DNA of 17,565 bases from Bdellovibrionia bacterium (GTDB lineage: Bacteria > Bdellovibrionota > UBA1018), in contig JBJMMA010000078.1 in NCBI GenBank assembly GCA_045805065.1, positions 1 to 17,565 of the forward strand, read 5' to 3'. The position numbers were made by a program, and so were the translations under genes. The notes beneath the pieces were generated by a model. That model was not told the origin of the DNA. It did not search any database and was given only the letters and a program-made list of their open reading frames with translations. Position 1 is the stretch's first letter. Every line of letters begins with the position of its first letter. Below are positions 412 to 17,565 of this stretch, piece by piece.

Positions 412-412
412 A

Positions 413-781: not shown

Positions 782-814
782 ATCGTCTCCATCTAGGAAC
801 GGTTGTCGAACCTA

Positions 815-889: not shown

Positions 890-896
890 GAAGATA

Positions 897-2351: not shown

Positions 2352-2354
2352 GTA

Positions 2355-4181
2355 TTAAGCGTCCCGTGCAACTTTTTTCGGAACATCGTTGAGTTCACGG
2401 AAAAGCTCGAGAACTTCTGCGCGGGTCAGGACCTTGGATTCGCGCTCACCATACTTACGTACGGCAAACTGTCCTTGCTCCATCTCACGATCGCCTGCGA
2501 CCAGCGAGAACGGGATCTTTGCCATCTGCGCTTCGCGGGTCTTGAGGCCCATCGACTCATTACGAGAGTCAACATCCACACGGAAGCCCATGGATTTAAG
2601 CTCACGCTCAAATTGCTGGCAGTACTCGTTGTGAGAATCCTTGATCGGAACAAGGCGAGCTTGAACCGGAGCCAACCAGAACGGGAATGCACCGCCGACG
2701 TGCTCGGTGAGCACGCCAACGAAACGCTCGATCGAACCCAAGACCGCGCGATGGACCATCACAGGACGTTGAGCCGTATTATCAGCTGCCGTGTAGGTGA
2801 GATCAAAGCGCTCTGGAAGATTGAAGTCGAGTTGAATGGTCGAAAGCTGCCATGGGCGCTTCAGAGCATCCTTTACGATGAAGTCGATCTTTGGACCGTA
2901 AAAGGCGCCATCGCCTGGATTGATGGTGTAAGGGCGGCCAAGCTTATCGAGCGTTCTTCTCAAGCCCGCTTCTGCCTTATCCCAGACTTCTTCCGAGCCC
3001 ACGCGCTTCTCGGGACGCGTCGAGAGGAAGATCTGCATATCGGTGAAACCGAAAAGATCAAACGTTCCGAAGATCATCTTCACGACCTTCAGGATTTCTT
3101 CTTCGATCTGGTCTGGCGTACAGAAAACGTGCGCATCGTCCTGGCAGAAGCTGCGAACTCGGGTCAGGCCGTGCGTAGCGCCGGATTTTTCAAAGCGATG
3201 AAGGCGTCCGAAATCCGCCATCCGAAGTGGCAGATCACGATACGAGTGCTTGGTCGTATTGAAGAGCACGCAGTGGCTTGGGCAGTTCATGGGCTTGACG
3301 CCGAACTCGCGATTTTCGACTTCGGTGAAGTACATGCTCTCGACATAGTTGTCGTAGTGGCCCGACGTTTTCCAAAGCTGCACATCCAGGATCTGTGGCG
3401 TGATGACTTCAGAGTATCCGTACGGAACATAGAGATCGCGGATGTACTGAACGAGGCGATTATAGACAATCGCGCCTTTTGGATAGAAGAACGGAGCCGC
3501 AGGCGACTCTGGCAAGAAGGTGAAGAGCTCAAGCTCTTTGCCGAGTTTGCGGTGGTCGCGCTTTTTTGCTTCTTCAAGAAGGTGCAGATGCTCATCGAGC
3601 TCAGCCTTCGTCAAAAACGCAGCGCCATAAATCCGTTGAAGCTGTGGGTTCTTCTCGCTTCCGCGCCAGTAGGCGCCAGCGACAGAGAGAAGCTTGATGG
3701 CGCCCATCTCGGACGCTTTTTGAACGTGAGGGCCACGGCAAAGGTCGACGAAGTCGCCTTCCTTATACGTGCTCACGGATGTTGCCTTCATCTTATCGCG
3801 AAGGGTTTCAATGATCTCAATCTTGAATGGCTGACCGAGCTTCTTGAACATCTCAAGAGCTTCATCAATCGTGTGCTCTTCGCGGATGAAAGGCGCGCCG
3901 GACTTCACGATCTTTTTCATCTCCGCTTCGATCTTTGGCAGATCTTCCGGCGTGAGCTTATGAGCCATGTCGACGTCGTAATAGAAGCCGTTGTCGATGG
4001 TAGGGCCAATTCCAAACTTAGCATCCGGCCAGAGGCGTTGAATCGCGTGGGCCATGATGTGAGCAGCCGAGTGGCGCATGGTTTCGACTTCAGAATGGAT
4101 CTCCGGTTCACGGAAATCTTCTGGAAGTTCGACGTTTAATTCTTTTTCGGCTTGTGCCTGGGACGATTGGATTTGGCTCAT
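2355..4181 (-). CDS. thrS: Threonine--tRNA ligase (short form lacking N-terminal TGS domain)
   Basis: Editing domain RHSAAH...DLCRGPHV, RDHRKLG, Zn ligands KPMNCP / LHRFE / MVHRA, GDGAFYGPKID, and FPFWLAPVQ leading into the anticodon domain. Confidence 0.98.
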   Translation of the reverse strand: MSQIQSSQAQAEKELNVELPEDFREPEIHSEVETMRHSAAHIMAHAIQRLWPDAKFGIGPTIDNGFYYDVDMAHKLTPEDLPKIEAEMKKIVKSGAPFIREEHTIDEALEMFKKLGQPFKIEIIETLRDKMKATSVSTYKEGDFVDLCRGPHVQKASEMGAIKLLSVAGAYWRGSEKNPQLQRIYGAAFLTKAELDEHLHLLEEAKKRDHRKLGKELELFTFLPESPAAPFFYPKGAIVYNRLVQYIRDLYVPYGYSEVITPQILDVQLWKTSGHYDNYVESMYFTEVENREFGVKPMNCPSHCVLFNTTKHSYRDLPLRMADFGRLHRFEKSGATHGLTRVRSFCQDDAHVFCTPDQIEEEILKVVKMIFGTFDLFGFTDMQIFLSTRPEKRVGSEEVWDKAEAGLRRTLDKLGRPYTINPGDGAFYGPKIDFIVKDALKRPWQLSTIQLDFNLPERFDLTYTAADNTAQRPVMVHRAVLGSIERFVGVLTEHVGGAFPFWLAPVQARLVPIKDSHNEYCQQFERELKSMGFRVDVDSRNESMGLKTREAQMAKIPFSLVAGDREMEQGQFAVRKYGERESKVLTRAEVLELFRELNDVPKKVARDA

Positions 4182-4290
4182 AACTTCAAATCCTTACCAT
4201 AGCCTGTGGGCGCTGGCCATCACCTGTTTGTAGATGTTTGCGGGGAACTCGCGACAAATTTCACCTCAGGCCTCAAAGCCGGACACCTGA

Positions 4291-4303
4291 TATCAAGTAC
4301 TTA
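4291..4303 (+). promoter_or_regulatory. IHF binding site
   Basis: TATCAAGTACTTA is an exact match to the IHF consensus WATCAANNNNTTR, and lies just upstream of a -24/-12 element. Confidence 0.6.
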
Positions 4304-4318
4304 GCCGCTTTAGAGCGA

Positions 4319-4334
4319 TGGACCATGACTTGCC
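4319..4334 (+). promoter_or_regulatory. Sigma54 (RpoN) -24/-12 promoter for the lipoprotein gene
   Basis: TGGACCATGACTTGCC has GG at 4320-21, N10, and GC at 4332-33, versus consensus TGGCAC-N5-TTGCW. An IHF site lies upstream; AGAGG RBS and ATG 4365 lie downstream. Confidence 0.6.
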
Positions 4335-4364
4335 AATGCGTCCGACTAGAAAGAGGTCCCTAGT

Positions 4365-5738
4365 ATGAAAATGAGATCAGTAGTCGTTAGATCAGCAATC
4401 GGAAGCTTAACGGTCATGGGCATTTTAGCCGGTTTTCAATCCTGTAAAGTGGCCCGAAGCGAACTTGTGAAGGCCCCGGACCAAAAGCAAGAAATGCCAG
4501 GCAAACAGGTGGTACCGAGTAATCAGGAAATTCTGAGTAAACAAGAAGGGCCTGTCTCGGCGGCCTTAAAAATGGATTTTTACCTGGCGGATGAAGGTAG
4601 CTCCGTACCTAACTTTAATCGTCCTGCACCTTCAAATCTCATGGAAGGGCTCTTGCGGGATGGAAGTGGATATCAGCTGAAAAAGAGAGTGCCTTTGGGC
4701 TCTGAAAAACTCTTTTTTGGGATTTCAGAAGGAGTAGGAAATCAGCGAATTGTAGATGCCTCTTATGAGTATCATGTTCTTTCCGAGTCGAATCAGACCA
4801 AAGGAGACATGCATCGAGCGCTCCTGGCCTATGATCCAGATCATCGCCAGTATTTCCTTTCCTTGGATCAGCTTTCCAAGGACCGAAACCAGAGATTGAG
4901 TTCGATGGATCTTCAGGTTTTGACTCTGGCTCTAAGGCATCAAGATGGGTCGATATCTCATGCAGAGATTCGCTTTTTAGTGAAAGCGCCGCTTCCATCG
5001 GCCGAGCAGATTCGAGTCTCCCAGGTTTTTCATGAGTCTAAAGGAGATCATGTGGATGCTGGAAAGACGATTTGGACAGTTTTAACGGAGCGTTACACGA
5101 ATCCCACGTCCCAACCGCTTTATCTTGAGTTTTCTTCAGCAGGCGTATCTTACCAGCTTGCGACAGAGCTGGGGGTTAAGCTCAATTGGGGAGACGTTTT
5201 GCCCGCATATCGTCCGGCCACGGAAGATGGCTTTGAGCCCGACCTTCATCGAATTTCTCTCGCTCCTCTAAACAGAGTGACTCTCGTTTTCAAGGATCTA
5301 AAAGGCGAGACGTTCAAGACGATGGGGGTGAGTTCTGCGATTTCGTTTCCAATGGAGATCCTTCCGGGTCAGACCTTCGATGTCGATTGGAAAGTCAAAG
5401 TCGGGAGCGACGCCGAGCCCTGTCCTCGGGGAGAGCGGTTTACTCGCACGGTCTGGGGCTGCGATACAACAGTCCCGGGCGAATCCTTTAGTCGCAAACC
5501 GTGGCCAGCATGCCGGCGTCCTCAAGGAGAGTTCGCAGCATTTAAGGAACCTATTGAATTGGATGGAGGATGGTTTCCTCAGCACTACCGAGTCGTCGGA
5601 GAATTCAAAAATACTGTGAGGGTCACCGACGATATCGAACTCGACGCGCAGGAGCTTTTGATTCGGACTTCCAAGCCCAGCGAGCCTTTAGATCCAAGCG
5701 TTGAGAAGTATTCCTGCCAGGGTTACTTCATGAAATGA
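4365..5738 (+). CDS. Hypothetical lipoprotein
   Basis: 457-aa ORF with RBS, basic N-terminus, hydrophobic stretch and lipobox AGFQSC (Cys27). Four further Cys in the C-terminal part. No family recognised. Confidence 0.8.
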   Translation: MKMRSVVVRSAIGSLTVMGILAGFQSCKVARSELVKAPDQKQEMPGKQVVPSNQEILSKQEGPVSAALKMDFYLADEGSSVPNFNRPAPSNLMEGLLRDGSGYQLKKRVPLGSEKLFFGISEGVGNQRIVDASYEYHVLSESNQTKGDMHRALLAYDPDHRQYFLSLDQLSKDRNQRLSSMDLQVLTLALRHQDGSISHAEIRFLVKAPLPSAEQIRVSQVFHESKGDHVDAGKTIWTVLTERYTNPTSQPLYLEFSSAGVSYQLATELGVKLNWGDVLPAYRPATEDGFEPDLHRISLAPLNRVTLVFKDLKGETFKTMGVSSAISFPMEILPGQTFDVDWKVKVGSDAEPCPRGERFTRTVWGCDTTVPGESFSRKPWPACRRPQGEFAAFKEPIELDGGWFPQHYRVVGEFKNTVRVTDDIELDAQELLIRTSKPSEPLDPSVEKYSCQGYFMK

Positions 5739-5801
5739 GTCATCCAAAGGGGGCGGTAATCAGTGGCAGCCGGATTCAAGGTATGAGAAGAGGGGAGGCG
5801 T

Positions 5802-6281
5802 ATGTCCTCCCCAGAATTTTCGCCACGCGAAGCCTCGATTGATGACCTTTCGGAACTCGTTCGCATCGAGTCCGCTGTTCACGTTGCTCCTTGGAGCGAT
5901 CAGGGTTTTAAAGGTGAGCTTGAAAAGCCTTACAGTCACACGCTCGTGATGACCGATGAAGAGACGGATGCGGTCATAGGCGGGTACATCGTGTTTTGGG
6001 AAATGGGAGAAGAGATTCAGATACTCAATGTGGCAGTCGATCTGCCTTACCGAGGCTTGGGTCTTGCCCAGAAATTGATCCGAAAAGTGGCCGATATGGC
6101 ACTCAAAAAAGGGCTAAAGAAGGTGACGCTGGACGTTAGAAAGTCCAATAACGCAGCCATCCAGCTCTATCAGAAGCTCGGTTTCACGATCCAAACAGTC
6201 CGAAAAGCCTTCTACTCAAATAGCGAAGATGCTTACGGAATGATCCTCGATCTGACGGTTGAGAAGACCTTCGAATTTTAA
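5802..6281 (+). CDS. rimI: Ribosomal-protein-alanine N-acetyltransferase (RimI-like GNAT)
   Basis: IE......PWS, ILNVAV...YRGLGLA, LDVRKSN..AI.LY.KLGF...RK.FY..EDA..M; GGAGG RBS. Confidence 0.9.
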   Translation: MSSPEFSPREASIDDLSELVRIESAVHVAPWSDQGFKGELEKPYSHTLVMTDEETDAVIGGYIVFWEMGEEIQILNVAVDLPYRGLGLAQKLIRKVADMALKKGLKKVTLDVRKSNNAAIQLYQKLGFTIQTVRKAFYSNSEDAYGMILDLTVEKTFEF

Positions 6282-6358
6282 AGACCGAGCGCTTTAGTTT
6301 GTCTTAACTATTCCCTGCTTTACAAGGCTAGAAGCGGCTGGATAAGGTCCGCCCGCTT

Positions 6359-7123
6359 ATGAAGTTTATTCAAGCGGCTTTGAAAACGGGCCAACTGCTC
6401 GTTCAAAAAGTTTTGATTTTCACCCTCGCGATCGGTTTTGTGTCGGCCTTCTGGTCGGCGATTTCTCTCCCGCAAACTCCAACGGATGATTTTGGATTTG
6501 GAGCGCATCGCTCTTCTCGTCCGACTTCGGTTGCGGGAATGTCCTACCGGGTGATCACCGCGATTCTTTCTGAGCGGATGACCTCAGCCTCTCAAGATCA
6601 GATCGACCGACTCGCCAAGCACATCATCTTTCTCTGTCAGCGATATCACTTTGATCCTGCTTTCATTCTTTCGATGATCCAGGTCGAAAGCGGATTTAAT
6701 CCAAGTGCCCTGTCTCCCGCCGGAGCAGTCGGACTCATGCAGCTCATGCCTGCCACAGCCACCGTCGTGGTCCGCGATATGAATCCACCTCTGGATAAGA
6801 AGACCCTGGAGAGCATCAAAAAGACCGCAACTCCCGAAAATCGATTCGTAGCGATGAGCCGCCAACTTCTAGTCGACCCGGTTGTCAATTTGACCCTAGG
6901 GGTGGCGTACCTGGCCTCCCTCCGGGAGCATTACCGCGAGCTCCATCCTTATTACGTTCTGGCTGCCTATAATATGGGACCAGCAAGAATTGATGAGCTG
7001 ATGTCGAAAAAGACATTCAAACCTGATAAGACCAAGAAATATTTTGAAGCGATCCGCCAAGGGACTTCCCAGTTCCGCCTCTACCGGGCTAACCGCCGGC
7101 CTGCATTCGTTGCAGCCTCCTAG
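6359..7123 (+). CDS. Lytic transglycosylase (SLT domain), N-terminal membrane anchor/signal
   Basis: IQVESGFNP.A.S.AGAVGLMQLMP.T, NL..G..YL and LAAYNMGP motifs; hydrophobic N-terminal segment. Confidence 0.92.
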   Translation: MKFIQAALKTGQLLVQKVLIFTLAIGFVSAFWSAISLPQTPTDDFGFGAHRSSRPTSVAGMSYRVITAILSERMTSASQDQIDRLAKHIIFLCQRYHFDPAFILSMIQVESGFNPSALSPAGAVGLMQLMPATATVVVRDMNPPLDKKTLESIKKTATPENRFVAMSRQLLVDPVVNLTLGVAYLASLREHYRELHPYYVLAAYNMGPARIDELMSKKTFKPDKTKKYFEAIRQGTSQFRLYRANRRPAFVAAS

Positions 7124-7199
7124 CAGTTAATCCCGCGAACGGTGGCTGTTTTGTCATCGTGCCGGCTCGCGCTAGCTAAGAGAGGTTTAGGTTTTAAAT

Positions 7200-7637
7200 A
7201 TGTACGAACTCCGTGTGAAGGTTGATTTCCCCGCCGCTCACCACCTGACTGGCTATCCGGGCGACTGCGCTCGTCCCCATGGACATAACTGGGTGCTCGA
7301 GGTTTACGCTCGCTCAACGAAGCTGGATTCCATCGGAATGGCGATGGATTTCCGCGATCTCAAGAAGGCAGCAAAAGAACTTGTGGCGCCTTGGGACCAT
7401 CAGGATTTGAATCTTCTGGATGACTTCAAGACGATCAATCCATCGGCAGAAGCGATCGCGCGCCTTTCTTATGAGCGCTTGGCGAACTTACTCGATGGGG
7501 CTGAAACCTGGGTCGATAAAGTCACGATCTGGGAAAACGAACGCTGCTCGGCGACCTATTATGGTGAGCGCTCGATTGAGCGTTTAAGCCAAAAGCTCAT
7601 TGCCCAAGACAACGCTCGGGCGTCGAATAAGGCTTAA
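7200..7637 (+). CDS. queD: 6-carboxy-5,6,7,8-tetrahydropterin synthase
   Basis: FPAAH.L...C-x3-HGHNW, DH..LN, PSAE.IA and WE motifs; adjacent to queC. Confidence 0.93.
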   Translation: MYELRVKVDFPAAHHLTGYPGDCARPHGHNWVLEVYARSTKLDSIGMAMDFRDLKKAAKELVAPWDHQDLNLLDDFKTINPSAEAIARLSYERLANLLDGAETWVDKVTIWENERCSATYYGERSIERLSQKLIAQDNARASNKA

Positions 7638-7648
7638 GGAGCACGCTC

Positions 7649-8329
7649 ATGCGTCAGCCTTCAGTCATTCTTTTATCGGGTGGGCTTGACTCGACCGCGA
7701 ACCTTGCTTTTGCTTGCGAGTATGACGAGCCAGTCTTGGCTCTTACGATTCGTTACGGTCAGCGCGCGGCAGAGCGTGAGGTGATCGCGGCTCGTGGTCT
7801 TTGCGAGTATTACGGAGTTGAGCACCAGGTGATGGATCTCTCCTGGCTGGGTGCTTTGGGCGGAAGCTCTTTGACCCAGAGCTCGATGTCGGTTCCAGAG
7901 CTGAAGACCTCCGAGCTGGATGATCTTTCTGTGATTCAAGACACGGCAAAATCCGTTTGGGTTCCAAACCGTAACGGCGTTTTCATCAACGTTGCCGCAG
8001 CCTGGGCCGAACGTCGCGGAGCCAAGCGCGTGGTCGTTGGATTTAACCGCGAAGAGGCAACGACCTTCCCGGATAATTCGATCGATTTTTTGAATCGCTC
8101 GACGCGCTCCCTGGAACTCTCCACCGCCAATCATGTCGAAGTGTTCTGCTACACGGCTGCATGGGATAAGCGCGAGATTGTTCGCGAGCTTGAAAAACTT
8201 TCCAAGCCCTTTCCGTTTGAAAAGGTTTGGAGCTGCTACATGGGAGGCGAGACGGCTTGCGGAAAATGCGAATCTTGCCAACGTCTGTCGCGCGCGCTTT
8301 CGGTTCGCACCGGGAATAAAGGGGCTTAA
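7649..8329 (+). CDS. queC: 7-cyano-7-deazaguanine (preQ0) synthase
   Basis: PP-loop SGGLDS, YGQR, VP.RN, FPD, and C-terminal Zn motif SCY-x6-CGKCESC; AAGGAG RBS. Confidence 0.95.
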   Translation: MRQPSVILLSGGLDSTANLAFACEYDEPVLALTIRYGQRAAEREVIAARGLCEYYGVEHQVMDLSWLGALGGSSLTQSSMSVPELKTSELDDLSVIQDTAKSVWVPNRNGVFINVAAAWAERRGAKRVVVGFNREEATTFPDNSIDFLNRSTRSLELSTANHVEVFCYTAAWDKREIVRELEKLSKPFPFEKVWSCYMGGETACGKCESCQRLSRALSVRTGNKGA

Positions 8330-8332
8330 ATA

Positions 8333-8926
8333 GTGAATACTTCTCTGACGACCTTGTTTTCCAAGACAGAGCGAACCTATACAGGCCCTGAGCTCAGACC
8401 TCATTTTTTGCTTACCGAGCTCAAGCTTGAAGGATCAGGGATTGGCGCTTTCATCGGCCCGTGCCGAGTCGAGACCGCTCATCTCGTCGATTGGGAAGAT
8501 CGCCTGGCCAATGACCGGATCGAAGCCAAGAAGATGGTTCATTTCATTGGGGAGTTCTTTGGCGCCTCTCTTCGTGAGGGCGTTTTGATTCAAAGACTTT
8601 TCATGGCCAACGCTTTTGATACGCTCCGAGAAAGGCTTGAAGCTTCGGGCAAGTTTGGAGTGCTGCGCCGCGATGGGGATGATCTTTTTGTTCGGGGTGA
8701 AAAAGGGGAGCGAAAGCTCTCTGTATCGATCGTGACCGCATCCCCGGTCTCGCAGCTTCTTCATGCGGGAATTAATATCGACCCAACCGGCGCTCCTGTG
8801 CCGGCAGTTGGGCTGGCTGAACTTGGCGTGGATCCTACGGAATGGGTCCCAGCTCTTCTCGAGCGCTTTGCGAAGGAATGGAAAGGCATGGAGTGGGCTT
8901 GCGTGAAAGTCCGTCCCGTGGTGTAG
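8333..8926 (+). CDS. DUF366 family protein (PH0223-like)
   Basis: Y.G.EL..HF, F.GPC.V....VD.ED, M.HFI.E.F, QRL, R.GDDL...RKLSVSI.T, H.GINI and K.R.V at the C-terminus match my recollection of DUF366. GTG start 3 nt after the queC stop. Confidence 0.82.
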   Translation: MNTSLTTLFSKTERTYTGPELRPHFLLTELKLEGSGIGAFIGPCRVETAHLVDWEDRLANDRIEAKKMVHFIGEFFGASLREGVLIQRLFMANAFDTLRERLEASGKFGVLRRDGDDLFVRGEKGERKLSVSIVTASPVSQLLHAGINIDPTGAPVPAVGLAELGVDPTEWVPALLERFAKEWKGMEWACVKVRPVV

Positions 8927-8933
8927 GTATTCT

Positions 8934-10082
8934 ATGAGCTACAACCAGGTTCCTGAATACATTCGCAAGCTTGTTCCCTATGTTCCTGGGAAGCCGATCG
9001 AAGAAACTCAGCGCGAGTTCAATCTTCGCCGGGTCATAAAACTCGCATCCAATGAGAATCCTTTAGGCCCAAGCCCGAAAGCTCTTCAGGCCGCGCGCGA
9101 ATGCATGCGCGATCTGCACCGTTATCCGGATGCAAGCGCCTATGAGCTCAAGCACGCGCTGGCTGCGCATCTGAATGTCGCACCTCAATCCATTGTTCTT
9201 GGAAATGGCTCAAACGAGATCATCGATTTTCTGATTCGCACTTATTGCATCCCGGGGGATTCGATCGTCACCTGTCAGGCTGCGTTTGTGGCGTACAAGA
9301 TCTGCGCTCAGATTCATGGCGTGAACACGGTTGAAGTTCCGCTTGATTCGGAGCTTCGCTTCAGTCCGGCGGAAATGGTTCGCACGGTCGAGAAGAATCC
9401 TCGTGCGCGCGTCGTGTTTATCGCAAATCCGAACAACCCAACGGGTACTTACGTCACGACCCAGGAGATGAAGTATCTTCTGGACCGACTCTCCAAGATC
9501 CGCGGTGGATCCGTTTTGATCGCGCTCGATTACGCTTACTGGGAATATGTGACGGCCAAGGATCTTCCGGACCCGATGGAGCTTTTACGTCAGTATCCAA
9601 ATGTCGTCGTCATGCGCACTTTCTCGAAAGTGTACGGCATGGCTGGAATGCGCATTGGCTATGGCGTTGCGGCACCTGAAATCATCGCGCATCTTGAGAA
9701 GGTCAGACAGCCTTTCAACATGAACTCCATCTCGCTCGCAGGCGCGGTTGCGGCGCTCACTGACAAGACGTTTGTCAAAAAAGCGCGTACGCTGAATGCT
9801 CAAGGCATGAAGTTCTGGGAAAAAGAACTGAAAGCTCTGGGAATTCCTTTTTGGAAGAGCCAGGGCAATTTCATTCTGGCGGATGTTCAGAAAGCGACCG
9901 GAATGTCGGGCGCCGAGGCTTACCAGGCTTGTCTTCGCAAGGGTGTGATCTTCAGGCCCGTGACAAACTACGGCCTGGCTCATGCGCTTCGGATCAGCAT
10001 CGGCACGATGGCGGAAAACCGCGCAGGCATACGGGCATTGAAGACCTTGTTTCCGAAAGTATCCGCAAAGGCCAAAAAGTGA
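8934..10082 (+). CDS. hisC: Histidinol-phosphate aminotransferase family (HisC-like PLP aminotransferase)
   Basis: Y.PGKP, KLASNENPLGPSP, YPD, GNGSNE, NPNNPTG, D.AY, RTFSK.YG.AG.RIGY, and RISIGT..EN. Confidence 0.92.
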   Translation: MSYNQVPEYIRKLVPYVPGKPIEETQREFNLRRVIKLASNENPLGPSPKALQAARECMRDLHRYPDASAYELKHALAAHLNVAPQSIVLGNGSNEIIDFLIRTYCIPGDSIVTCQAAFVAYKICAQIHGVNTVEVPLDSELRFSPAEMVRTVEKNPRARVVFIANPNNPTGTYVTTQEMKYLLDRLSKIRGGSVLIALDYAYWEYVTAKDLPDPMELLRQYPNVVVMRTFSKVYGMAGMRIGYGVAAPEIIAHLEKVRQPFNMNSISLAGAVAALTDKTFVKKARTLNAQGMKFWEKELKALGIPFWKSQGNFILADVQKATGMSGAEAYQACLRKGVIFRPVTNYGLAHALRISIGTMAENRAGIRALKTLFPKVSAKAKK

Positions 10083-10099
10083 TTCGGGAGAGTCAGGAA

Positions 10100-10870
10100 A
10101 TGACCATTCCAAAGCTTGGACCTGTCATCGCCATCGATGGCCCTGCAGGAACGGGGAAGAGTTCCGCAACTCGCCGATTGGCTGACTCGCTCGGGTTTAT
10201 CCATGTCGATACCGGCGCTCTTTACCGGGCGGTTGCGTATCTGGTTCTGCAGCAGGCAGCTAAAGCACGCGGCGACCAGGCCCCTGAGGCAGTGACCGAA
10301 GGAACTGTGGAAATCCCAAACTTTGTTGAGAACGCGACGGAGACCGCCCGCTCGGTGCACCTTGAGTTCAAGCGCATGCCTCGGAAGAATCCAAAGAACC
10401 GCATCTATGCGAACGGCAAGGATGTGACCGGCTTTATCCGTACTCCGGAAGTCAGCATGCTGGCGTCAAAAGTTTCCGCCATTCCAGCGGTTCGCGCCTC
10501 GCTTTTGGGGCTGCAGCGCCGCCTGGGTTGCGTGGGTAAAAGCATTTTGGAAGGCCGTGACATTGGGACGGTCGTTTTCCCGGATGCCGATGTGAAGTTT
10601 TTCCTCACGGCTGATGTCGATGAGCGTGCCAAAAGGCGGCTTGCTGAGCTTGAAGCTTCCGGAGCTGACGCCCCATCTTTTGAGGAACTCAAGCGGCAGA
10701 TCGCTGAGCGGGATCGCGGAGATTCAGAACGTGCGATTGCCCCTCTTAAAAAAGCAGAAGATGCGCTAGAGTTAGATACGAGCCAAATGACTTTGGATGA
10801 AGTCGTGAACAGCATGGAAGCAACCGTTCGTCAAAAACTCGGAATAGCATCGGCAAAGAGGGGCGCTTGA
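10100..10870 (+). CDS. cmk: Cytidylate kinase
   Basis: VIAIDGPAGTGKSS, DTGALYRA, EGRDIGTVVFPDA.VKFFL.A....RA.RR, RD..DS.R..APL. The real start is most likely ATG 10100 (MTIPK), not the 9851 start in the track, which overlaps hisC. Confidence 0.96.
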   Translation: MTIPKLGPVIAIDGPAGTGKSSATRRLADSLGFIHVDTGALYRAVAYLVLQQAAKARGDQAPEAVTEGTVEIPNFVENATETARSVHLEFKRMPRKNPKNRIYANGKDVTGFIRTPEVSMLASKVSAIPAVRASLLGLQRRLGCVGKSILEGRDIGTVVFPDADVKFFLTADVDERAKRRLAELEASGADAPSFEELKRQIAERDRGDSERAIAPLKKAEDALELDTSQMTLDEVVNSMEATVRQKLGIASAKRGA

Positions 10871-12045
10871 GTAACTCGATTTCTCGTCGCGCATCGCGCG
10901 CTGGACTTCGGATTCTCGTGATTCGCCCGGATCGTCTCGGAGATGTCGTTTTATCGACGCCAGTCTTTGAGGTGATCAAGCGCCATTACCCGGATTCGCA
11001 CCTGACTCTCGTGGTGCGCGAAAGCGTCGCGCCCGTGGTTCGAGGGCTTCCATCCATCGATGAAGTTCTGATCTTTGATCCTGAGAAGCGGCACGCGGGC
11101 TTCCGTGGATTTTTGAGACTTGTGGAAGATTTCCGCAAAGGAAATTACCGGATCGCGGTCGTGCTTCAGGGCAATATGAAGATTGCCGCGGCAACCTTCT
11201 TTTCCAATATCCGTTACCGGGTTGGGCCCCTGAGCAAGATTTATTCATACTTCTTATTTAATCGCGGCATCCGCCAGCATCGTTCACAAGTGGAGATGCA
11301 TGAGACGGATTATAATCTCCAGCTTTTGCGCCGCCTGGGGATTCGTGTCAGCAGTCGTCGCGTTCCATTGCGCGTCAGTGTTCCGGATGAGAAGCGCGCT
11401 CAGGCTCGCGCCTGGCTATTGGGGAAGGGCTGGAATCCTGAGCAGCCTTTGGTTGCGGTTCACCCCGGAATGGGGGGCTCGGCTCTCAATTGGCCCGAGA
11501 CTCATTATGTCGAGTTTGTCCGTACTCTTTTAAAGGAAGGTCGTCAGGTTCTATTGACCGGAGGTCCTGCGGAAGTTTCGCTTTTGAACCGCATTGGCGA
11601 CGCGCTCGGCCCCCTGAAAGAAAAGGCGATCTTTTACTCAAACACGGAGCCTGTGGGCGGACTCGGAGCAACGCTTGAGTTTTTTGCGGGTCTCATCTCG
11701 CATGTCAGCCTGATGGTCGCGCCAAGCACTGGACCGCTTCATCTTGCTGTGGCCCTGGACCGTCCGGTTCTGACCTTTTATCCACCGATCCGCGTTCAGA
11801 GCGCGATTCGTTGGGGTCCGTATTTGAAAGACGAGTCTCGCGCAAGCGTCATGGTCCCGGATGTTTACTGTGGGCAGGATTTCAAATGCCTGGGAAATCT
11901 TTGCAATTACTTCCCATGTATGAAAAGCCTAACAGTGACGCAGGCGCTTGATCAGGCTAACCAGCAGTTGGCCAAAAGATCGTTGGAGATTGCGGATCAA
12001 GTCGCAAAAGAAATGGCTCCTGAAAAAGTTCCAGAAAAAGTTTAA
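10867..12045 (+). CDS. Glycosyltransferase family 9 (ADP-heptose:LPS heptosyltransferase-like)
   Basis: ILVIRPDRLGDVVLSTP, HE...NL.LL, VAVHPG, W....Y and STGPLHLA.A. TTG start overlaps the cmk stop (TTGA). Adjacent to a heptose kinase. Confidence 0.9.
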   Translation: MSNSISRRASRAGLRILVIRPDRLGDVVLSTPVFEVIKRHYPDSHLTLVVRESVAPVVRGLPSIDEVLIFDPEKRHAGFRGFLRLVEDFRKGNYRIAVVLQGNMKIAAATFFSNIRYRVGPLSKIYSYFLFNRGIRQHRSQVEMHETDYNLQLLRRLGIRVSSRRVPLRVSVPDEKRAQARAWLLGKGWNPEQPLVAVHPGMGGSALNWPETHYVEFVRTLLKEGRQVLLTGGPAEVSLLNRIGDALGPLKEKAIFYSNTEPVGGLGATLEFFAGLISHVSLMVAPSTGPLHLAVALDRPVLTFYPPIRVQSAIRWGPYLKDESRASVMVPDVYCGQDFKCLGNLCNYFPCMKSLTVTQALDQANQQLAKRSLEIADQVAKEMAPEKVPEKV

Positions 12046-12067
12046 GTCTAATCCCTGAGACAAGCAC

Positions 12068-13153
12068 ATGGCAAAGACCCGTAAAGCGGTGCAGAAGAAG
12101 TCTTTCAAAAACTACGAAATGGAAATGATCCGCCCCGAGCATTGGGAGCGGGGAAGACTCAGAGAAATTCTTCGTCGCAAGATGCCGCGCAAGAAGGTTC
12201 TGGTCATCGGCGATGTCGGCATGGATCGTTACACGATCGGACTGGTCGAGCGGATTTCTCCTGAGGCGCCTGTTCCGATCGTTCTCGTTGAAGATGAGCA
12301 GCATAAGCTGGGCCTTGCAGCGAACGTTGCCGATAATGTTTCATGTCTCGGCGGCATCCCCCTTTTGGTGGGGATCGTAGGTGCTGATCGCATCGCGCTC
12401 GATTTTAAAAAGCTTTTGAAGGTTTCCAAGATTCCTTCCCAGCATCTGATCGAAGACGCTCATCGTCGCACTGTTTTGAAAGAGCGTATCGTCAGTGATC
12501 GTCAGCAGCTTGTGCGCGTCGATTACGAAACGGTGGGCCCGATCAGTCAGGCAACAGAAGCTGTGCTCCTCAAGAAAGTGAAGCAGCTTCTGCCGCAGGC
12601 TGATTGCGTGATTCTTGAGGACTACGCGAAGGGTCTTTTAAGTGCCGAGCTTGCTGAAGAGATTTTTGCTCTGGCAAGGAAGGCTGGCAAATTTGTCGCG
12701 GTTGACCCGAACATGAAAACACCAGTGGGTTTTTATCGGGGCGCATCGGTTCTGACCCCGAACACCAAGGAAGCTGAGAAGCTTTCTGGCATTTCCATTT
12801 ATGACAATGAGTCACTTCTGGCCGCAGGCTCTGCCATTCTGAAGGCGACTGATGCCGAGCATGTCGTGATCACCCGCGGTAAAGACGGGATGGCGATCTT
12901 CTCCAAGGAAGATCATCGAGTGATGCTCATTCCGACTTACGCGCGTGAAGTCTATGACGTCTCGGGTGCAGGCGATACCGTGATCTCCGTTCTGGCTCTT
13001 GCCATGGCGGGTGGCGCTAGTGTCGTTGAAGCTGCAATCTTGGGAAATCTTGCGGCAGGCGTTGAAGTTGGTAAGCGCGGTACCGCGACCGTCACTCCGG
13101 ATGAAGTCGAAGTCGCTCTCGAGTTCTTTGGGGCGATGGGGATTTCTCAGTAG
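12068..13153 (+). CDS. rfaE1: D-glycero-beta-D-manno-heptose-7-phosphate kinase (stand-alone RfaE/HldE domain I, PfkB family)
   Basis: VLVIGD..MDRY..G.VERISPEAPVP, AANVA.N, QQLVRVD.E, DYAKG, TPN..E and EVYDVSGAGDTV; no adenylyltransferase domain. Confidence 0.93.
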   Translation: MAKTRKAVQKKSFKNYEMEMIRPEHWERGRLREILRRKMPRKKVLVIGDVGMDRYTIGLVERISPEAPVPIVLVEDEQHKLGLAANVADNVSCLGGIPLLVGIVGADRIALDFKKLLKVSKIPSQHLIEDAHRRTVLKERIVSDRQQLVRVDYETVGPISQATEAVLLKKVKQLLPQADCVILEDYAKGLLSAELAEEIFALARKAGKFVAVDPNMKTPVGFYRGASVLTPNTKEAEKLSGISIYDNESLLAAGSAILKATDAEHVVITRGKDGMAIFSKEDHRVMLIPTYAREVYDVSGAGDTVISVLALAMAGGASVVEAAILGNLAAGVEVGKRGTATVTPDEVEVALEFFGAMGISQ

Positions 13154-13228
13154 GGTCTAGGTCTGCGGTCAATGTTTTGACTCTGCGATCGATGATCGAT
13201 TTGACAGGTTCACTAATCGGGGCATTTA

Positions 13229-13236
13229 GCCGATAA
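13229..13236 (+). promoter_or_regulatory. Possible sigma28 (FliA) -10 element
   Basis: Exact GCCGATAA, 6 nt before ATG 13243. The -35 position (TCAC, 13210-13213) is only a partial match to TAAA. Confidence 0.35.
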
Positions 13237-13242
13237 GGCGAT

Positions 13243-14103
13243 ATGGGCTCGAGAGTCGTTCTTCGACTATATCCACTTTTTTTAGCCTGTTTGCTCAGCG
13301 TCGCTCCGCTCGTCGCTGCTCGCGCGCAGGATGAGATCAGCTCTCGGCTGATTGAGGATGTGAAAAGTACAGTCGAAGAAATCGCGAAGCTGCATCCTCC
13401 TGAGGAGTCTTACTATATTGGAATCGGGGGGAGTCCAACGCCTGTCATTGCTTTGATGCAAGAAGCAGGACTCTCTGCGGCAAACGTCCCGGCTTCTCGA
13501 AGTGGAGCGCTAGTCGGTGTAGCGAAAAATAATGCTCAGTATCACGAGAATCTATTTCGACATCTCGATCAATTTATTCCCAAGCCGGAAGTGTTGGGAA
13601 ATCGAAAATTAGTGGTGATGGATTTTACGTATAGTGGCGCCTCGTTAATGAATTTCAAAGACGCGTTGGAATACTATTTCAAAGAGCGTGGTTTGCATCT
13701 TCCCCATCAATTTGTGGCTCTCAGGTCAAGCCAAACTCAAGGTCAATATCTTGAAGAAGGTGTCCAACACATCTATTTGCCTAAATATCTCGAGGAAGTA
13801 TTGTCGAATAACTCTGGGTTTAAGCAAGTGTATCGGGAATACGATTCTTGGGAAGCGTCAAAGACACAGGCGTACCGGCCACCGCAGCAACGAGCGCGGT
13901 ATCTTGAATTGCGAGCACGCTTTGGTTTAGCCTTGAGGCAAGATCCAAAGTTTTTAGAGCGTATCAAACGGACTCATTTTGTTCGTCCTCAACATGAAAA
14001 TGTGAACATGACTACGAATGCGGATACGAGTGGGAATACGGGTTCTAGAGAGAAGCGAGGCTGCGTTATTGGGTTTCTCAGACGTATCTTTACGAAGCGT
14101 TAG
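13243..14103 (+). CDS. Hypothetical secreted protein with a PRTase-like motif
   Basis: 286 aa with a Sec-type signal (…LVAARA-QD), YYIGIGGSP and LVVMDFTYSGASL. The last resembles the type I PRTase PRPP-binding loop. Confidence 0.7.
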   Translation: MGSRVVLRLYPLFLACLLSVAPLVAARAQDEISSRLIEDVKSTVEEIAKLHPPEESYYIGIGGSPTPVIALMQEAGLSAANVPASRSGALVGVAKNNAQYHENLFRHLDQFIPKPEVLGNRKLVVMDFTYSGASLMNFKDALEYYFKERGLHLPHQFVALRSSQTQGQYLEEGVQHIYLPKYLEEVLSNNSGFKQVYREYDSWEASKTQAYRPPQQRARYLELRARFGLALRQDPKFLERIKRTHFVRPQHENVNMTTNADTSGNTGSREKRGCVIGFLRRIFTKR

Positions 14104-14177
14104 CTCGTTCCACGGATACGCGCAGCAATGGGGTTCCGGGAAGGTTGATGACGATGTGCGTCTTTAGGGTAGTGGTC

Positions 14178-14206
14178 TTGTTATAGCCCAATTGCCAGGC
14201 TATAGT
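14178..14206 (+). promoter_or_regulatory. Putative sigma70 promoter of the MetRS-like gene (likely leaderless mRNA)
   Basis: TTGTTA (14178-83), 17 nt, TATAGT (14201-06). The GTG start is 7 nt downstream, with no SD. Confidence 0.45.
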
Positions 14207-14213
14207 CGGGCCC

Positions 14214-16175
14214 GTGAGCTCAAAAGAACCTTCCGCAACCAAGCCTACTTTTATCCCACCTACAGACGTCGCTGGCGTCTTAAAGCAGATCAAGCGACCT
14301 GAGAAAGCGGTCGTCACGGCAGGCATGCCTTACGCCAACGGCCCTCTTCACATTGGGCATCTGGCTGGTGCGCATGTTCCAGCGGATATTTATTCCCGGT
14401 GGCTGGGGCTTTTGATCGGACGAAAGAACGTTCTTTTTGTGAACGGAACCGATGACCACGGCTCGACGAGCGAAGTCGCAGCTCTCAAAGCCGGTCTCCC
14501 CATGCGCGAGTTCATCGATGGCATTCACGTCAAGCAGCGCGAGACGTTGAAGCGTTATTCGATCGGCGTCGACACCTACACGGGAACCTCGCGCCCGGAA
14601 TGCTTTCCAGCTCACAAGGAGCTCGCACAAGATTTTATCCGTAAGCTTTACAAGAACGGCATGCTCGAAAAGCGCAAAAGCATGCAGTGGTACGATACGA
14701 CTCTCAATCGCTTTCTCCCAGACCGCTACGTGAAGGGGAAATGCCCAAATCCTGCTTGCGATAACGAGAGCGCCTACAGTGACGAGTGCGATAAGTGCGG
14801 GTCGCAGTACGATCCATCGCAGCTTGGAAATCCCAAGAGCGCGATCAGTGATTCGGTTCCTGTGATGAAGGAGACGGTCCACTGGTGGCTCGATATGTGG
14901 AAGGTCTCGGACGTCCTTCGCGTTTGGATCCAAAGCAAAGAAGGCACGTGGCGTAAGCCAGTTCTGGCTGAAGTCCTTGGAACGGTTCTTCCGACTGCCT
15001 CCTTCGATGCGGCTCTTGAGCCTCAGTATAAAGAGATGAAGGCGCAGCTTCCAAAGCATAAGCCACGCTATGCTCCGGGCAAAAAGATCGCGCTTCAGTT
15101 CGAGTCAAAAGACGAAATGAACAAGGGTAGGGAGATGCTCAAGGCTCAAGGCATTGAAACGGCTCTTGTCGACGCTTGGGCACATCGCTCGATCACCCGT
15201 GACGTTTCCTGGGGTATCCCGCTTCCTGTGGAGCTTGATCCGGATATGGCCGGCAAGACGCTTTACGTCTGGCCGGATTCCTTGATCGCTCCGATCTCAT
15301 TCTCAAAAGTCGCATTGAAAGAATCGGGACGTGATCCAGAGATGTACGCTGAGTTTTGGCGCAATCCAAACGCTAAGGTTTATCAGTTCCTCGGCCAGGA
15401 TAACGTTTTCTTCTACGTCATCATGCAAGGCGCGATGTGGCTTGGAACTCAGGAAGACCCAATGAGACTTCCTCAGGCGGGCGAGTTGCAACTGACTGAC
15501 ATCTTTGGATGCTTCCATCTCCAAGTCAACGGCGAGAAGATGAGTAAGTCTCGCGGCAATTTCTATAGCGGCGATCAGCTTCTCGAGGAGAAGGGCTACA
15601 CGGCCGATCAGATTCGTTACTTCTTGGCAACTTTGAGCTTGCCTGAGAAGGCTTCGAATTTTGATTTCGCGACTCTCGATGAGCGTAACAAATTCTTGGC
15701 TGGCCCAATGAACGCGGCCTTTGAAAAGCCGATTTCTGCTTGCCACTCGAAGTTTGGCGGAAAGATTCCAGAAGGCGTTCTGAACGAGAAGGTTGTTCAA
15801 GAGACGCTTCAGGTCGTGCGCCGATATGTCAAAGGCATGGATCGTTCCGAGTACTCCAATCTCTTGGGCGCGATCGAAAACTACGCACGCTCGATCAACA
15901 GCATGTTCACGCAGTTCAAGCCGCATGACGATCGCTTCCCAGAAGAAGCTCGCAAGAACGCGCTTTACACCTGCTTCTATGTTCTCAAGAACATCATGAT
16001 CATGCTCTATCCATTTGTCCCTGAGACGATGGATCGCCTCCGTCAGTCGCTGAGACTTCCAAAGGAAGTCTTTACGATTGATGAACTGGGTAAGCCAATT
16101 CCTGGCGGTCATGAGATTGGTGAGAAGCTTCAGTATTTCCCGGCGGTGGCTGGGGCGGAAGTGGGCGAGGCTTAA
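14214..16175 (+). CDS. metG: Methionine--tRNA ligase-like class Ia synthetase with divergent amino-acid and anticodon pockets
   Basis: PYANG.LHIGH, D.HG, FL.DRYV.G.CP...C...D.C..CG Zn knuckle, ITRD..WGIP.P, LYVW.D, G.DN, KMSKS, D..RY.L and helical anticodon bundle (P..PET). No C-terminal tRNA-binding appendix. The MetRS family is certain; Met specificity is doubtful (see findings). Confidence 0.85.
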   Translation: MSSKEPSATKPTFIPPTDVAGVLKQIKRPEKAVVTAGMPYANGPLHIGHLAGAHVPADIYSRWLGLLIGRKNVLFVNGTDDHGSTSEVAALKAGLPMREFIDGIHVKQRETLKRYSIGVDTYTGTSRPECFPAHKELAQDFIRKLYKNGMLEKRKSMQWYDTTLNRFLPDRYVKGKCPNPACDNESAYSDECDKCGSQYDPSQLGNPKSAISDSVPVMKETVHWWLDMWKVSDVLRVWIQSKEGTWRKPVLAEVLGTVLPTASFDAALEPQYKEMKAQLPKHKPRYAPGKKIALQFESKDEMNKGREMLKAQGIETALVDAWAHRSITRDVSWGIPLPVELDPDMAGKTLYVWPDSLIAPISFSKVALKESGRDPEMYAEFWRNPNAKVYQFLGQDNVFFYVIMQGAMWLGTQEDPMRLPQAGELQLTDIFGCFHLQVNGEKMSKSRGNFYSGDQLLEEKGYTADQIRYFLATLSLPEKASNFDFATLDERNKFLAGPMNAAFEKPISACHSKFGGKIPEGVLNEKVVQETLQVVRRYVKGMDRSEYSNLLGAIENYARSINSMFTQFKPHDDRFPEEARKNALYTCFYVLKNIMIMLYPFVPETMDRLRQSLRLPKEVFTIDELGKPIPGGHEIGEKLQYFPAVAGAEVGEA

Positions 16176-16185
16176 TTAAGTGTAT

Positions 16186-16241
16186 GACGCGCTGTTTCGC
16201 CGCAGCGGCGAAGCGGTGCGGCGAAGTCTGATTTTCAGACT
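16186..16241. repeat. Structured intergenic repeat, copy B (inverted relative to copy A)
   Basis: GACGCGCTGTTTCGCCGCAGCGGCGAAGCGGTGCGGCGAAGTCTGATTTTCAGACT aligns ungapped to the reverse complement of 815-870 (39/56 identical by hand count), with two hairpins preserved. Confidence 0.72.
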
Positions 16242-16333
16242 ATAGGCTGCAATTCGACCCACATCTAACTTGAGCAAGTGGACAACGCTATTCCACTCGA
16301 TTGCATTTCGAGTTGTGAGTTTTAAGGAGCTAC

Positions 16334-17308
16334 ATGAGTACACCTAAACGACCTCTCGGAAAGTCTGGTATCTTGGTTGCGCCCCTGGCGTTTGGCGGAA
16401 ACGTATTTGGCTGGACAGCCGATGAAGCGGCATCGTTTCGACTCCTTGATAGATTTGTCGACCGGGGATTCAATCTGATTGATACAGCTGACGTGTACAC
16501 GCGCTGGATCCCAGGACATCAGGGCGGCGAATCGGAGTCAATTATCGGAAAGTGGCTCAAGAAGAGCGGCAAACGTGACAAGGTCGTGATTGCCACCAAG
16601 GTTGGATTCGATATGGATCCAGCAAAATCCGGAATGTGGTCTGACACGCGTTGCTTGAAGAAGGACTACATTCTTAAAGCAGTCGAAGACTCTTTGAAGC
16701 GACTTCAGGTCGAGACCATCGATCTATATCAAACTCACATCGATGACTTGGATACGCCCGTCGAAGAAACGATGGAGGCATTAGATCTTTTGGTTCGTCA
16801 GGGAAAAGTCAGATCAATCGGGGCGTCTCAGTATAAGCCCGAGCGTTTGATCGAATCGCTGACGTTTGCCGAAAAGAATCATCTCACGCCCTATACTTGC
16901 TTGCAGCCTGGATACAATCTTTACGACCGTGAAGACTACGAGCGCGACTTGCAGCCCATTGTTGAAAAGTACGGCTTGGGGGTCATTACTTACTTTTCGT
17001 TGGCAGGCGGGTTTCTGACCGGAAAATACCGCACGGATCAGGATCTTTCGAAGAGCGCTCGCGGACAGGGCATCGTGAAAACGAAATACTTCAATGAGAA
17101 GGGACTGAAGATCGTTCGTGCTTTGGATCAGGTAGCAGAACGAGTCCATGCCCCTTTATCCACCATTGCTCTGGCCTGGATTTTATCCAATCCGACGATT
17201 ACCGCCCCGATTGCCAGCGCTACGAACTTGGAGCAGCTTGATGAAATTTTGAAGGCTCCAGAGCTCAAGTTGGATACTGAATCTTTAGAGCTTTTCAATC
17301 GTGTATAA
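16334..17308 (+). CDS. Aldo/keto reductase
   Basis: LAFGGNVFG, IDTADVY (catalytic Asp/Tyr), IATKVG (Lys), SLKRLQ...IDLYQ.H, GKVRSIGAS and SLAGGFLTGKY; AAGGAG RBS. Confidence 0.95.
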   Translation: MSTPKRPLGKSGILVAPLAFGGNVFGWTADEAASFRLLDRFVDRGFNLIDTADVYTRWIPGHQGGESESIIGKWLKKSGKRDKVVIATKVGFDMDPAKSGMWSDTRCLKKDYILKAVEDSLKRLQVETIDLYQTHIDDLDTPVEETMEALDLLVRQGKVRSIGASQYKPERLIESLTFAEKNHLTPYTCLQPGYNLYDREDYERDLQPIVEKYGLGVITYFSLAGGFLTGKYRTDQDLSKSARGQGIVKTKYFNEKGLKIVRALDQVAERVHAPLSTIALAWILSNPTITAPIASATNLEQLDEILKAPELKLDTESLELFNRV

Positions 17309-17309
17309 A

Positions 17310-17565
17310 ATGCATCGTATGATTCGATGTTTTTGGGTTTTAATGCTTTTCGCTCTGACGGCATCAGCAGAAACACCTTCTATTTTTGGAAAGTGGCAAA
17401 GCAATTGTTTTGCGCTTCCAGTTCGACATTCTTTCATTGCTGACCTTTCCGCTGGTTCAAAAGATCTAGCATTGGATGTGAACCTCTATTCGGACAGCTC
17501 GTGTGCGAATCCGAGCCTGATCATCAACATTGAGGGGGGCTACAATACAGGACAAGCGATGGGTC
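17310..17565 (+). CDS. Hypothetical secreted protein (partial; runs off the window)
   Basis: Hand translation: MHRMIRCFWVLMLFALTASA-ETPSIFGKWQSNC...NLYSDSSCANP. It has a signal peptide, is open to the window end, and starts 1 nt after the AKR stop. Confidence 0.7.
   Translation, partial: MHRMIRCFWVLMLFALTASAETPSIFGKWQSNCFALPVRHSFIADLSAGSKDLALDVNLYSDSSCANPSLIINIEGGYNTGQAMG

Follow-up and report, generated by a model that had tools for sequence, protein, structure and literature searches.

Introduction

Two textbook routes lead to Gln-tRNA-Gln, one through glutaminyl-tRNA synthetase (GlnRS) and the other through glutamyl-tRNA synthetase (GluRS) plus an amidotransferase, and both are of GluRS descent. 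In the case of lysyl-tRNA synthetase (LysRS), two unrelated families, class I and class II, serve one canonical amino acid and show a mutually exclusive, patchy distribution. Here we describe a gene on a contig of 17,565 nucleotides from a Bdellovibrionia bacterium (GenBank assembly GCA_045805065.1, contig JBJMMA010000078.1, positions 1 to 17,565; this whole stretch is called the window), which encodes a paralog of methionyl-tRNA synthetase (MetRS). From its sequence anatomy, family-wide conservation, fold, phyletic complementarity and gene context we infer that its amino acid is glutamine and its tRNA is tRNA-Gln, and we put the probability that it is a MetRS-derived GlnRS, a third route to Gln-tRNA-Gln, at about 0.72. 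No MetRS-derived GlnRS and no function of the paralog family was found described in the literature searched (full text, with few subscription journals), and earlier publication is possible.

The paralog has the fold, HIGH and KMSKS motifs, Zn knuckle, amino-group Asp and domain order of canonical MetRS (Pyrococcus abyssi 1rqg; Escherichia coli 1qqt/1f4l), but only 28% identity to it; it carries an insertion of about 70 residues, its pocket and anticodon residues are replaced, and wherever examined it always occurs alongside a canonical MetRS. With the GluRS-derived GlnRS (TIGR00440) it shares the proposed reaction, a patchy and optional distribution with or without GatCAB, and a tendency to adjoin gltX, whereas homology between the two is limited to the class I core and they differ in anticodon-binding domain and in origin. 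Unlike the LysRS precedent, the present case concerns another amino acid and two enzymes that both belong to class I, the new one of which derives from the synthetase of a different amino acid. GluRS2 plus GatCAB also handles tRNA-Gln in genomes that lack GlnRS (PMC3927822; the articles cited by PMC number are drawn on in excerpt) and was never found together with the paralog in any of 26 genomes compared. GluRS2 however attaches Glu and needs GatCAB, while the paralog is of MetRS descent and occurs without GatB in 23 genomes of a single family (f19). Finally, the MetRS-like domain of hydrazine synthetases (PyrN, 9l8v) shows a MetRS scaffold adapted to amino acids other than Met, Glu included (PMC12376268). 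These synthetases are cupin-fused or cupin-adjacent, tRNA-free and located in biosynthetic clusters (PMC2922099), whereas the paralog family is stand-alone, lies in a housekeeping or Glx-tRNA context and has kept its anticodon-binding domain.

Distribution of the paralog and GlnRS

The pattern was first noticed in four closed Bdellovibrio genomes, two of which have the paralog and lack the 570-residue GlnRS, while the two without the paralog have GlnRS. Among the first 201 genomes analyzed from the predatory Bdellovibrionota, the paralog was found in 56 and GlnRS in 27, with no genome having both. An additional 200 genomes of the phylum, used as a test of the prediction, gave 79 with the paralog, 55 with GlnRS and again none with both. 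Over all 401 genomes the paralog therefore occurs in 135 and GlnRS in 82, and zero co-occurrences were observed where 27.6 would be expected if the two were independent (Fisher values of 7e-5 and 1.5e-17, relatedness ignored). The distribution of the paralog is patchy even inside genera, and 266 of the 401 genomes have no detectable copy at E<=1e-150.

Both states were found inside eight genera (g1, g10, g12, g35, g36, g58, g77 and g170), the first of which is the window's own genus, where genome G268 has GlnRS. This implies at least eight shallow switches with zero co-occurrence, which is a stronger argument than the Fisher values. Two metagenome-assembled genomes (MAGs) labelled as other phyla (G202 and G204; completeness not known) also have the paralog without GlnRS and without GatB.

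Relation to GatCAB and to a second GluRS

GatB_N homologues were found in 161 of the 201 genomes of the first set at a threshold of E<=1e-20, using a profile that also picks up archaeal GatE-type proteins in controls. Eighteen of the 27 GlnRS genomes have GatB, and asparaginyl-tRNA synthetase (AsnRS) is present in 195 of the 201. In family f19, 35 genomes (mostly 97-100% complete) separate without overlap into 23 with the paralog only, seven with GlnRS only and five with GatB only. Since AsnRS was found in all 35, Gln-tRNA-Gln is the only unfilled need in the 23 paralog-only genomes; in five of these, a single GluRS is the only PF00749 synthetase. A second draw from this family (101 genomes) has canonical GatB in 17, and the twelve newly classified genomes with canonical GatB have neither the paralog (0/12) nor GlnRS (0/12). 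By the published logic that absence of gatCAB implies an essential GlnRS (excerpt of PMC3927822), the paralog would be essential in the paralog-only genomes.

An extra PF00749 fragment in G133 was considered as the relic of a GlnRS pseudogene and rejected, as it belongs to a 258-residue GluQ-like open reading frame (ORF). Divergent GatB_N-like frames of 660-684 residues were also observed, scoring about 162 bits compared to about 370-390 for canonical GatB in f19. Such proteins occur alongside the paralog (G299:C12:85031-85873 and G433:C7:49922-50755) as well as alongside GlnRS (G296:C175:14076-14858).

In the window's own genome GlnRS was not found, while GatB and AsnRS are present. This combination of paralog, GatB and AsnRS mirrors the state of Bdellovibrio bacteriovorus HD100, in which GlnRS, AsnRS and GatCAB coexist and GatCAB has been proposed to serve Asn synthesis (excerpt of PMC4206432).

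Second copies of GluRS were compared over 26 genomes from the window's own family and order. All thirteen paralog genomes have one GluRS-family gene each (second GluRS 0/13), the two GlnRS genomes have GluRS plus GlnRS, and eight of the eleven relatives with neither the paralog nor GlnRS have two GluRS genes. Genus g15 contains both conditions, with one GluRS in five paralog genomes and two in three paralog-free genomes. In its distribution the paralog acts like a fourth member of a mutually exclusive Gln-tRNA-Gln set: it is present where the other routes are missing and is non-redundant with GlnRS, with one possible exception (G203, below).

Sequence, fold and conservation

The ORF of the paralog spans 14214-16175 on the forward strand, as do all features of the gene given below, and encodes 653 residues from a GTG start codon; no alternative in-frame start codon lies ahead of conserved residue 38. 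The first-pass annotation had placed the start correctly at 14214 but had ended the gene at 15430, and the frame extends 745 nucleotides further. Pfam tRNA-synt_1g matches the product at 7e-93, as two stretches about 70 residues apart. Neither of the curated MetRS cut-offs is reached, with scores of 295.5 against the equivalog cut-off of 336.35 for TIGR00398 and 363.8 against 587 for NF001100. PF00749, the GlxRS catalytic domain, gives no match at E<=0.01, and TIGR00440 (GlnRS) is absent from the NCBIfam matches. The closest solved chains are the MetRS of P. abyssi (E 2.7e-67), of human cytosol and of E. coli. An AlphaFold2 model built from a 50-sequence alignment has a predicted local distance difference score (pLDDT) of 93.7 and a predicted TM score (pTM) of 0.92, and its top structural matches in Foldseek are all MetRS (1rqg: E 1e-39, TM 0.76/0.81).

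Conservation was analyzed in 125 sequences of the family (group A, 41-100% identity). The class I core is complete, with HIGH (H46-I-G-H49, 14349-14360; 124/125), the KMSKS loop (residues 442-446, 15537-15551; 124-125/125), the amino-group Asp and the MetRS fold all present. The Zn-knuckle cysteines C177, C182, C192 and C195 of the connective-peptide domain (14742-14798) are each found in 125 of 125 sequences.

The Met pocket, in contrast to this core, is not retained. E. coli L13, A256, P257, Y260, H301 and W305, which we take to line the Met side chain, correspond to M, S, L, P, Y and Q in the paralog. At the pocket lid, G37-M38-P39-Y40 (14322-14333) is the equivalent of E. coli A12-L13-P14-Y15, with G37 identical in 123 and M38 in 124 of the 125 sequences. 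W353-P-D-S-L-I-A-P360 (15270-15293) replaces W-(F/L)-D-A-P-I-G-Y of E. coli 253-260, and its positions 353, 354, 356, 357, 359 and 360 are identical in all 125. Residues 394-406 (GQDNVFFYVIMQG, 15393-15431), running from G394 through Y401 and Q405, stand in place of G-K-D-I-x-x-F-H-x-x-(F/W)-W-P (E. coli 294-306), again with N397, F400, Y401, M404 and Q405 in 125 of 125. From M38 through P354, S356, L357, A359 and P360 to this last group, identity is 124-125/125.

The anticodon-binding domain is altered in a similar manner. We assume that E. coli W461 and an Asn and Arg of the anticodon helix read the CAU anticodon of tRNA-Met. These CAU-reading residues are replaced, with E504 for the helix Arg and H571 for W461. 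The former lies in N500-A-A-F-E504-K-P506 (15711-15731; N500, E504 and P506 in 125/125), where the Arg of the canonical GN(L/F)xxR has become Glu, and the latter in K569-P-H-D-D-R574 (15918-15935; all six positions in 125/125), which occupies the place of 'PW' (E. coli P460-W461). A family-specific insertion of about 70 residues (248-321, 14955-15176) was found from the two-stretch profile matches, the alignment and the model; it is predicted to form a helix-strand-helix-strand-strand-helix element, and canonical MetRS has no such insertion.

Most of what the first-pass annotation had said of this gene was borne out. The motifs that it quoted were found where it had placed them (TAGMPY 35-40, HIGH 46-49, TDDHG 79-83, YVWPDSLIAP 351-360, GQDNVFFYVIMQG 394-406 and KMSKS 442-446). 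The substitutions A12G, L13M, A256S, P257L, Y260P, H301Y and W305Q, which it had read from an ungapped alignment, were reproduced when HMMER aligned the paralog, with gaps, to the MetRS of P. abyssi and of E. coli; these alignments do not bring back the equivalents of Y260 or H301, and they add F/L254P, G259A, K295Q and P306G. Its proposal of a competent paralog and not a decaying gene is supported by the retention of the substitutions, HIGH and KMSKS across the 125 homologues, among which the pocket substitutions are invariant or nearly so; such conservation argues that they reflect neither chance nor decay. The insertion, KPHDDR in place of 'PW' and NAAFEKP in place of the GNxxxR helix had escaped it.

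More than 120 proteins with 68-95% identity to the paralog were found by a word-indexed search, and databases label its relatives as 'methionine--tRNA ligase' or 'class I tRNA ligase family protein'. In a HMMER scan of 1.84 billion cluster representatives a clear gap was observed. A few full-length clusters at 42-62% identity form group A; a second set at 25-31% identity, aligning in one stretch, forms group B; beyond these lie ordinary MetRS, which align in two stretches. A quick maximum-likelihood tree of 36 sequences, hand-picked from the search matches, recovers group A and group B as one clade each (SH-aLRT 99 and 100, respectively). The two are also joined in a single clade (SH-aLRT 100), which adjoins the archaeal/E. 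coli-type MetRS and whose stem is long, at 1.14 substitutions per site.

Group B shares with the paralog family the insertion, most of the altered pocket positions, GMPY, VWPESL(W)APISFT and DNxxFY, besides the joint clade, but it has K(A/I)SSS for KMSKS, retains the anticodon-helix Arg and has no KPHDDR. It is found mainly in Bacillota and Actinomycetota (P0135, P0139, P0141, P0151, P0160 and P0219) and may be a further re-specified or tRNA-independent derivative of MetRS. Within the paralog family, G162 (98% complete, without GlnRS and without GatB) has the paralog in two adjacent frames (G162:C1:150489-152368, residues 17-311 and 308-645) with the junction inside the insertion domain, which represents either a frameshift, an assembly error or a truly split enzyme.

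GluRS residue type and tRNA-Gln

GluRS from these genomes differ at one column of the anticodon domain, position 364 in the 478-residue enzyme of G128. The single GluRS of GatB-only genomes has Q at this column (5/5). D or E is found in second copies of the GluRS2 type (5/5), K in the first copies of genomes with two GluRS (4/4), and K or Y in the GluRS of GlnRS genomes (8/8). In the paralog genomes the residue is K in nine, Y in three and R in one (13/13). These counts leave out G080, copy a of G117, G197 and G173, for which the longest ORF was in a wrong frame. The change of Arg358 to Gln turns the discriminating GluRS of Thermus thermophilus into a non-discriminating one, and Helicobacter pylori GluRS2 was converted by Glu334Arg together with Gly417Thr (excerpt of PMC2978374). 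The pattern observed here resembles these published switches, the column being not directly aligned to Arg358 or Glu334.

The discriminator base of tRNA-Gln(UUG) was A73 in 14 of 26 paralog genomes. It was G73 or U73 in 17 GlnRS genomes (A73 0/17) and in three GatB genomes with neither the paralog nor GlnRS (A73 0/3). Four of 24 genomes had no BLAST match and were left out of this set (G042, G081, G113 and G182). A73 is an identity element for MetRS and G73 for GlnRS. The first pair of tRNA-Gln(UUG) is A1:U72 in place of U1:A72 solely in GatB-less genomes, three with the paralog (loci L125, L130 and L132) and two with GlnRS (L126 and L128). As GatCAB requires U1-A72 of tRNA-Gln (excerpt of PMC4206432), this shift is consistent with freedom from that requirement.

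Part of this evidence bears on whether the paralog puts glutamate on tRNA-Gln, as an analogue of GluRS2, with amidation afterwards. The paralog is mutually exclusive with GluRS2-type copies, GatB is kept in 33 of the 56 paralog genomes of the first set, the window's included, and a MetRS-like domain has been solved with a glutamyl-adenylate analogue (PDB 9l8v, by its title). All three would suit such a role. The 23 paralog-only genomes of f19 nevertheless have no GatB_N homologue at E<=1e-20, and thus no amidotransferase for the second step; its mutual exclusion extends to GlnRS, which acts directly; and the pocket has gained no Arg or Lys for a carboxylate, its invariant residues (Y, Q, S and N) being neutral. 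We consider charging with glutamate unlikely.

The canonical MetRS of the genome

The genome of the window (4.22 Mb, 262 contigs, 94% complete) has a canonical metG on contig C30 (L001:1012-2622, minus strand), so that the paralog is not its sole MetRS, a point on which the suggestion of a re-specified copy had depended. The C30 enzyme has 536 residues, a TIGR00398 score of 444.5 bits (cut-off 336.35), the normal pocket motifs VWFDALLNY and GKDISRFHCVYWP, and RMSKS. Where HIGH is expected it has HVGW, the last His being Trp. This form is presumably functional and a family trait, because G173, G127 and G112, relatives that have no paralog, share it. The MetRS of f19 genomes and of G017 have H(M/L)GH and not HVGW. 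A canonical MetRS (492-567 residues) was likewise found together with the paralog in five of five near-complete paralog genomes of another family. The paralog is not the housekeeping MetRS.

It might still be a second, divergent but genuine MetRS, auxiliary, stress-specific or inhibitor-resistant, that makes Met-tRNA-Met. The MetRS fold with intact HIGH, KMSKS and Zn knuckle fits this, as do the database annotation as methionyl-tRNA synthetase, the position next to the initiator tRNA-fMet gene in Bdellovibrio, and the odd HVGW of the canonical enzyme. The last point loses force with the occurrence of HVGW in the three paralog-free genomes. All reported Met side-chain and CAU-anticodon residues were replaced and then frozen, the scores lie under both curated cut-offs, and a second MetRS leaves unexplained both the zero overlap with GlnRS in 401 genomes and the partition between GlnRS, GatB and the paralog. 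A further MetRS activity is therefore very unlikely.

Gene context of the paralog

Of 99 loci, 10 have gltX immediately 5' of the paralog and on its strand. Of 98 loci, 9 have tRNA-Gln(CUG) 40-110 nucleotides 3' of the paralog, likewise on its strand, and these 9 are close relatives (77-81% identity). G073 is a further case of tRNA-Gln(CUG) next to the paralog. The order among the close relatives is gltX, paralog, tRNA-Gln(CUG), and these arrangements probably represent one or two ancestral events and not ten independent ones. In the GlnRS-only f19 genomes G009, G088, G118, G138 and G198 it is glnS that adjoins gltX on the same strand. No neighbour was common to 18 diverse 18-kb loci of the paralog.

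The first-pass annotation had left open which amino acid the enzyme might have changed to: another standard residue, a Met analogue or a non-proteinogenic one. Altered choice is supported, with comparative genomics pointing to the first of these, namely glutamine, and not to the others. Activation of an amino acid other than glutamine, to serve a special tRNA or an extended genetic code, has in its favour that the changed pocket positions are those of engineered MetRS variants (PDB titles 3h97, 8bru and 8brw). The window however has no tRNA gene, the genome's 45 tRNAs form a standard set free of suppressor or unusual tRNAs, and there is no conserved biosynthetic neighbourhood; code expansion or a dedicated tRNA was rejected on the tRNA evidence. 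The distribution moreover follows the Gln-tRNA-Gln machinery specifically, AsnRS being near-universal (195/201), and we hold such a substrate to be highly improbable. A tRNA-independent amino-acid ligase of secondary metabolism, as in the cupin-type hydrazine synthetases, would draw on the many amino-acid specificities of MetRS-like domains (excerpts of PMC12376268 and PMC2922099) and on the presence of PyrN among the structural matches, but is hardly credible and was rejected, as the paralog has no cupin domain, the window's 17 ORFs include no cupin or lysine N6-monooxygenase partner, no neighbour is conserved over the 18 loci, the anticodon-binding domain is kept in full and highly conserved, and the similarity to PyrN (E 5e-17) covers the N-terminal part only and is far weaker than that to true MetRS.

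Proposed function as a MetRS-derived GlnRS

If the paralog is a glutaminyl-tRNA synthetase, its unchanged HIGH/KMSKS Rossmann core would make the aminoacyl-adenylate. The Met pocket has given up the thioether-holding residues Y260, H301, W305 and L13 (E. coli numbering), and the polar residues Y401, Q405, S356 and N397 that it has gained could hydrogen-bond the carboxamide of glutamine, which is nearly isosteric with methionine. The anticodon-binding domain has swapped its CAU readers (H571 of KPHDDR for W461, E504 for the helix Arg) and may now read YUG of tRNA-Gln, to which the enzyme would transfer Gln. According to the title of PDB 9l8v, the MetRS-like domain of PyrN was solved with a glutamyl-adenylate analogue, so the scaffold can take a Glx side chain, and engineered E. 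coli MetRS variants with L13M exist (PDB 8bru, by title). In genomes without GlnRS and GatCAB the paralog would be the sole source of Gln-tRNA-Gln, and in the window's genome, where GatB is kept, it would fill the role that GlnRS has in B. bacteriovorus HD100. Viewed over the whole phylum, it is probably a third, independently evolved enzyme for Gln-tRNA-Gln, derived from MetRS and not from GluRS, that changed from Met to Gln and from CAU to YUG, has repeatedly displaced GlnRS, GluRS2 and GatCAB, and is the sole and hence essential enzyme in many species.

Several observations weigh against this reading. The evidence for it consists of co-occurrence, gene context and sequence, and the Fisher values overstate significance because the genomes are related. 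GatB is kept in 33 of 56 paralog genomes, including that of the window, and the paralog is thus not provably essential there. Eight of the 201 genomes have neither the paralog, GlnRS nor GatB; these are multi-contig genomes, 65-97% complete, and other members of their families have GatB. One MAG, G203 (locus L063), has the paralog (57% identity), GlnRS (691 bits) and GatB together. This is the sole co-occurrence seen, in an 8.0-Mb MAG labelled Vulcanimicrobiota whose completeness and bin purity are not known, and it may be genuine or come from a mixed bin.

The GluRS and tRNA evidence has counterexamples as well. Alignments to T. thermophilus GluRS (1j09) end at residue 339, short of Arg358, and Thermotoga maritima GluRS2 aligns a Lys at the GluRS column, which is therefore not a universal predictor; the effect of Arg358 has itself been described as phylum-specific (excerpt of PMC3927822). 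In Bdellovibrio tRNA-Gln is identical (U73) in paralog and GlnRS genomes, so the shift to A73 is neither general nor required. In the same genus the paralog lies 150-250 nucleotides 3' of the initiator tRNA-fMet gene and not next to tRNA-Gln. Synteny with the GlnRS-type sister genomes continues up to tRNA-fMet and then breaks, suggesting an insertion hot spot, and we read this adjacency as a tRNA-flanked variable site and not as a functional link.

If the reading as a MetRS-derived GlnRS is true, the family is a previously unrecognised lineage of synthetases serving a canonical amino acid and a natural switch of amino-acid and tRNA identity between non-sister amino acids, which bears on shifts in code assignment. 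It would account for genomes that seem unable to decode Gln codons (one GluRS, no GlnRS and no GatCAB). The names 'methionine--tRNA ligase' and 'class I tRNA ligase family protein', in wide use for these proteins, would need correction. The family would further serve as a naturally optimised example of MetRS pocket re-engineering and might supply an orthogonal Gln pair for synthetic biology.

Other features of the window

The neighbours of the paralog in the window are housekeeping genes, namely thrS, queD, queC, a DUF366 gene, a hisC-like gene, cmk, a heptosyltransferase, a PfkB kinase and an aldo-keto reductase. No tRNA gene was found in the window, and the tRNA-Gln(CUG) of this genome lies 3' of gltX on contig C39. 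A weak promoter-like element, TTGTTA-17-TATAGT (14178-14206, forward strand), lies directly 5' of the start codon of the paralog; two such sites were found where 1.7 are expected, and a scan of the window for promoters and terminators gave nothing exceeding shuffled sequence. The sequencing runs listed as containing the sequence are four DNA runs from one soil-metagenome study, with no RNA run among them.

Two ORFs on the forward strand, 4365-5738 (457 residues) and 13243-14103 (286 residues), are hydrophobic at the N-terminus and match no Pfam family at 1e-5; the 286-residue ORF is located immediately 5' of the paralog. A 665-residue open frame at 2142-4139 (forward strand) is antisense to thrS (2355-4181, minus strand) and is probably not a gene. 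The DUF366 gene (8333-8926, forward strand) follows immediately after queD (7200-7637) and queC (7649-8329), a placement that suggests a link to 7-deazaguanine/queuosine metabolism.

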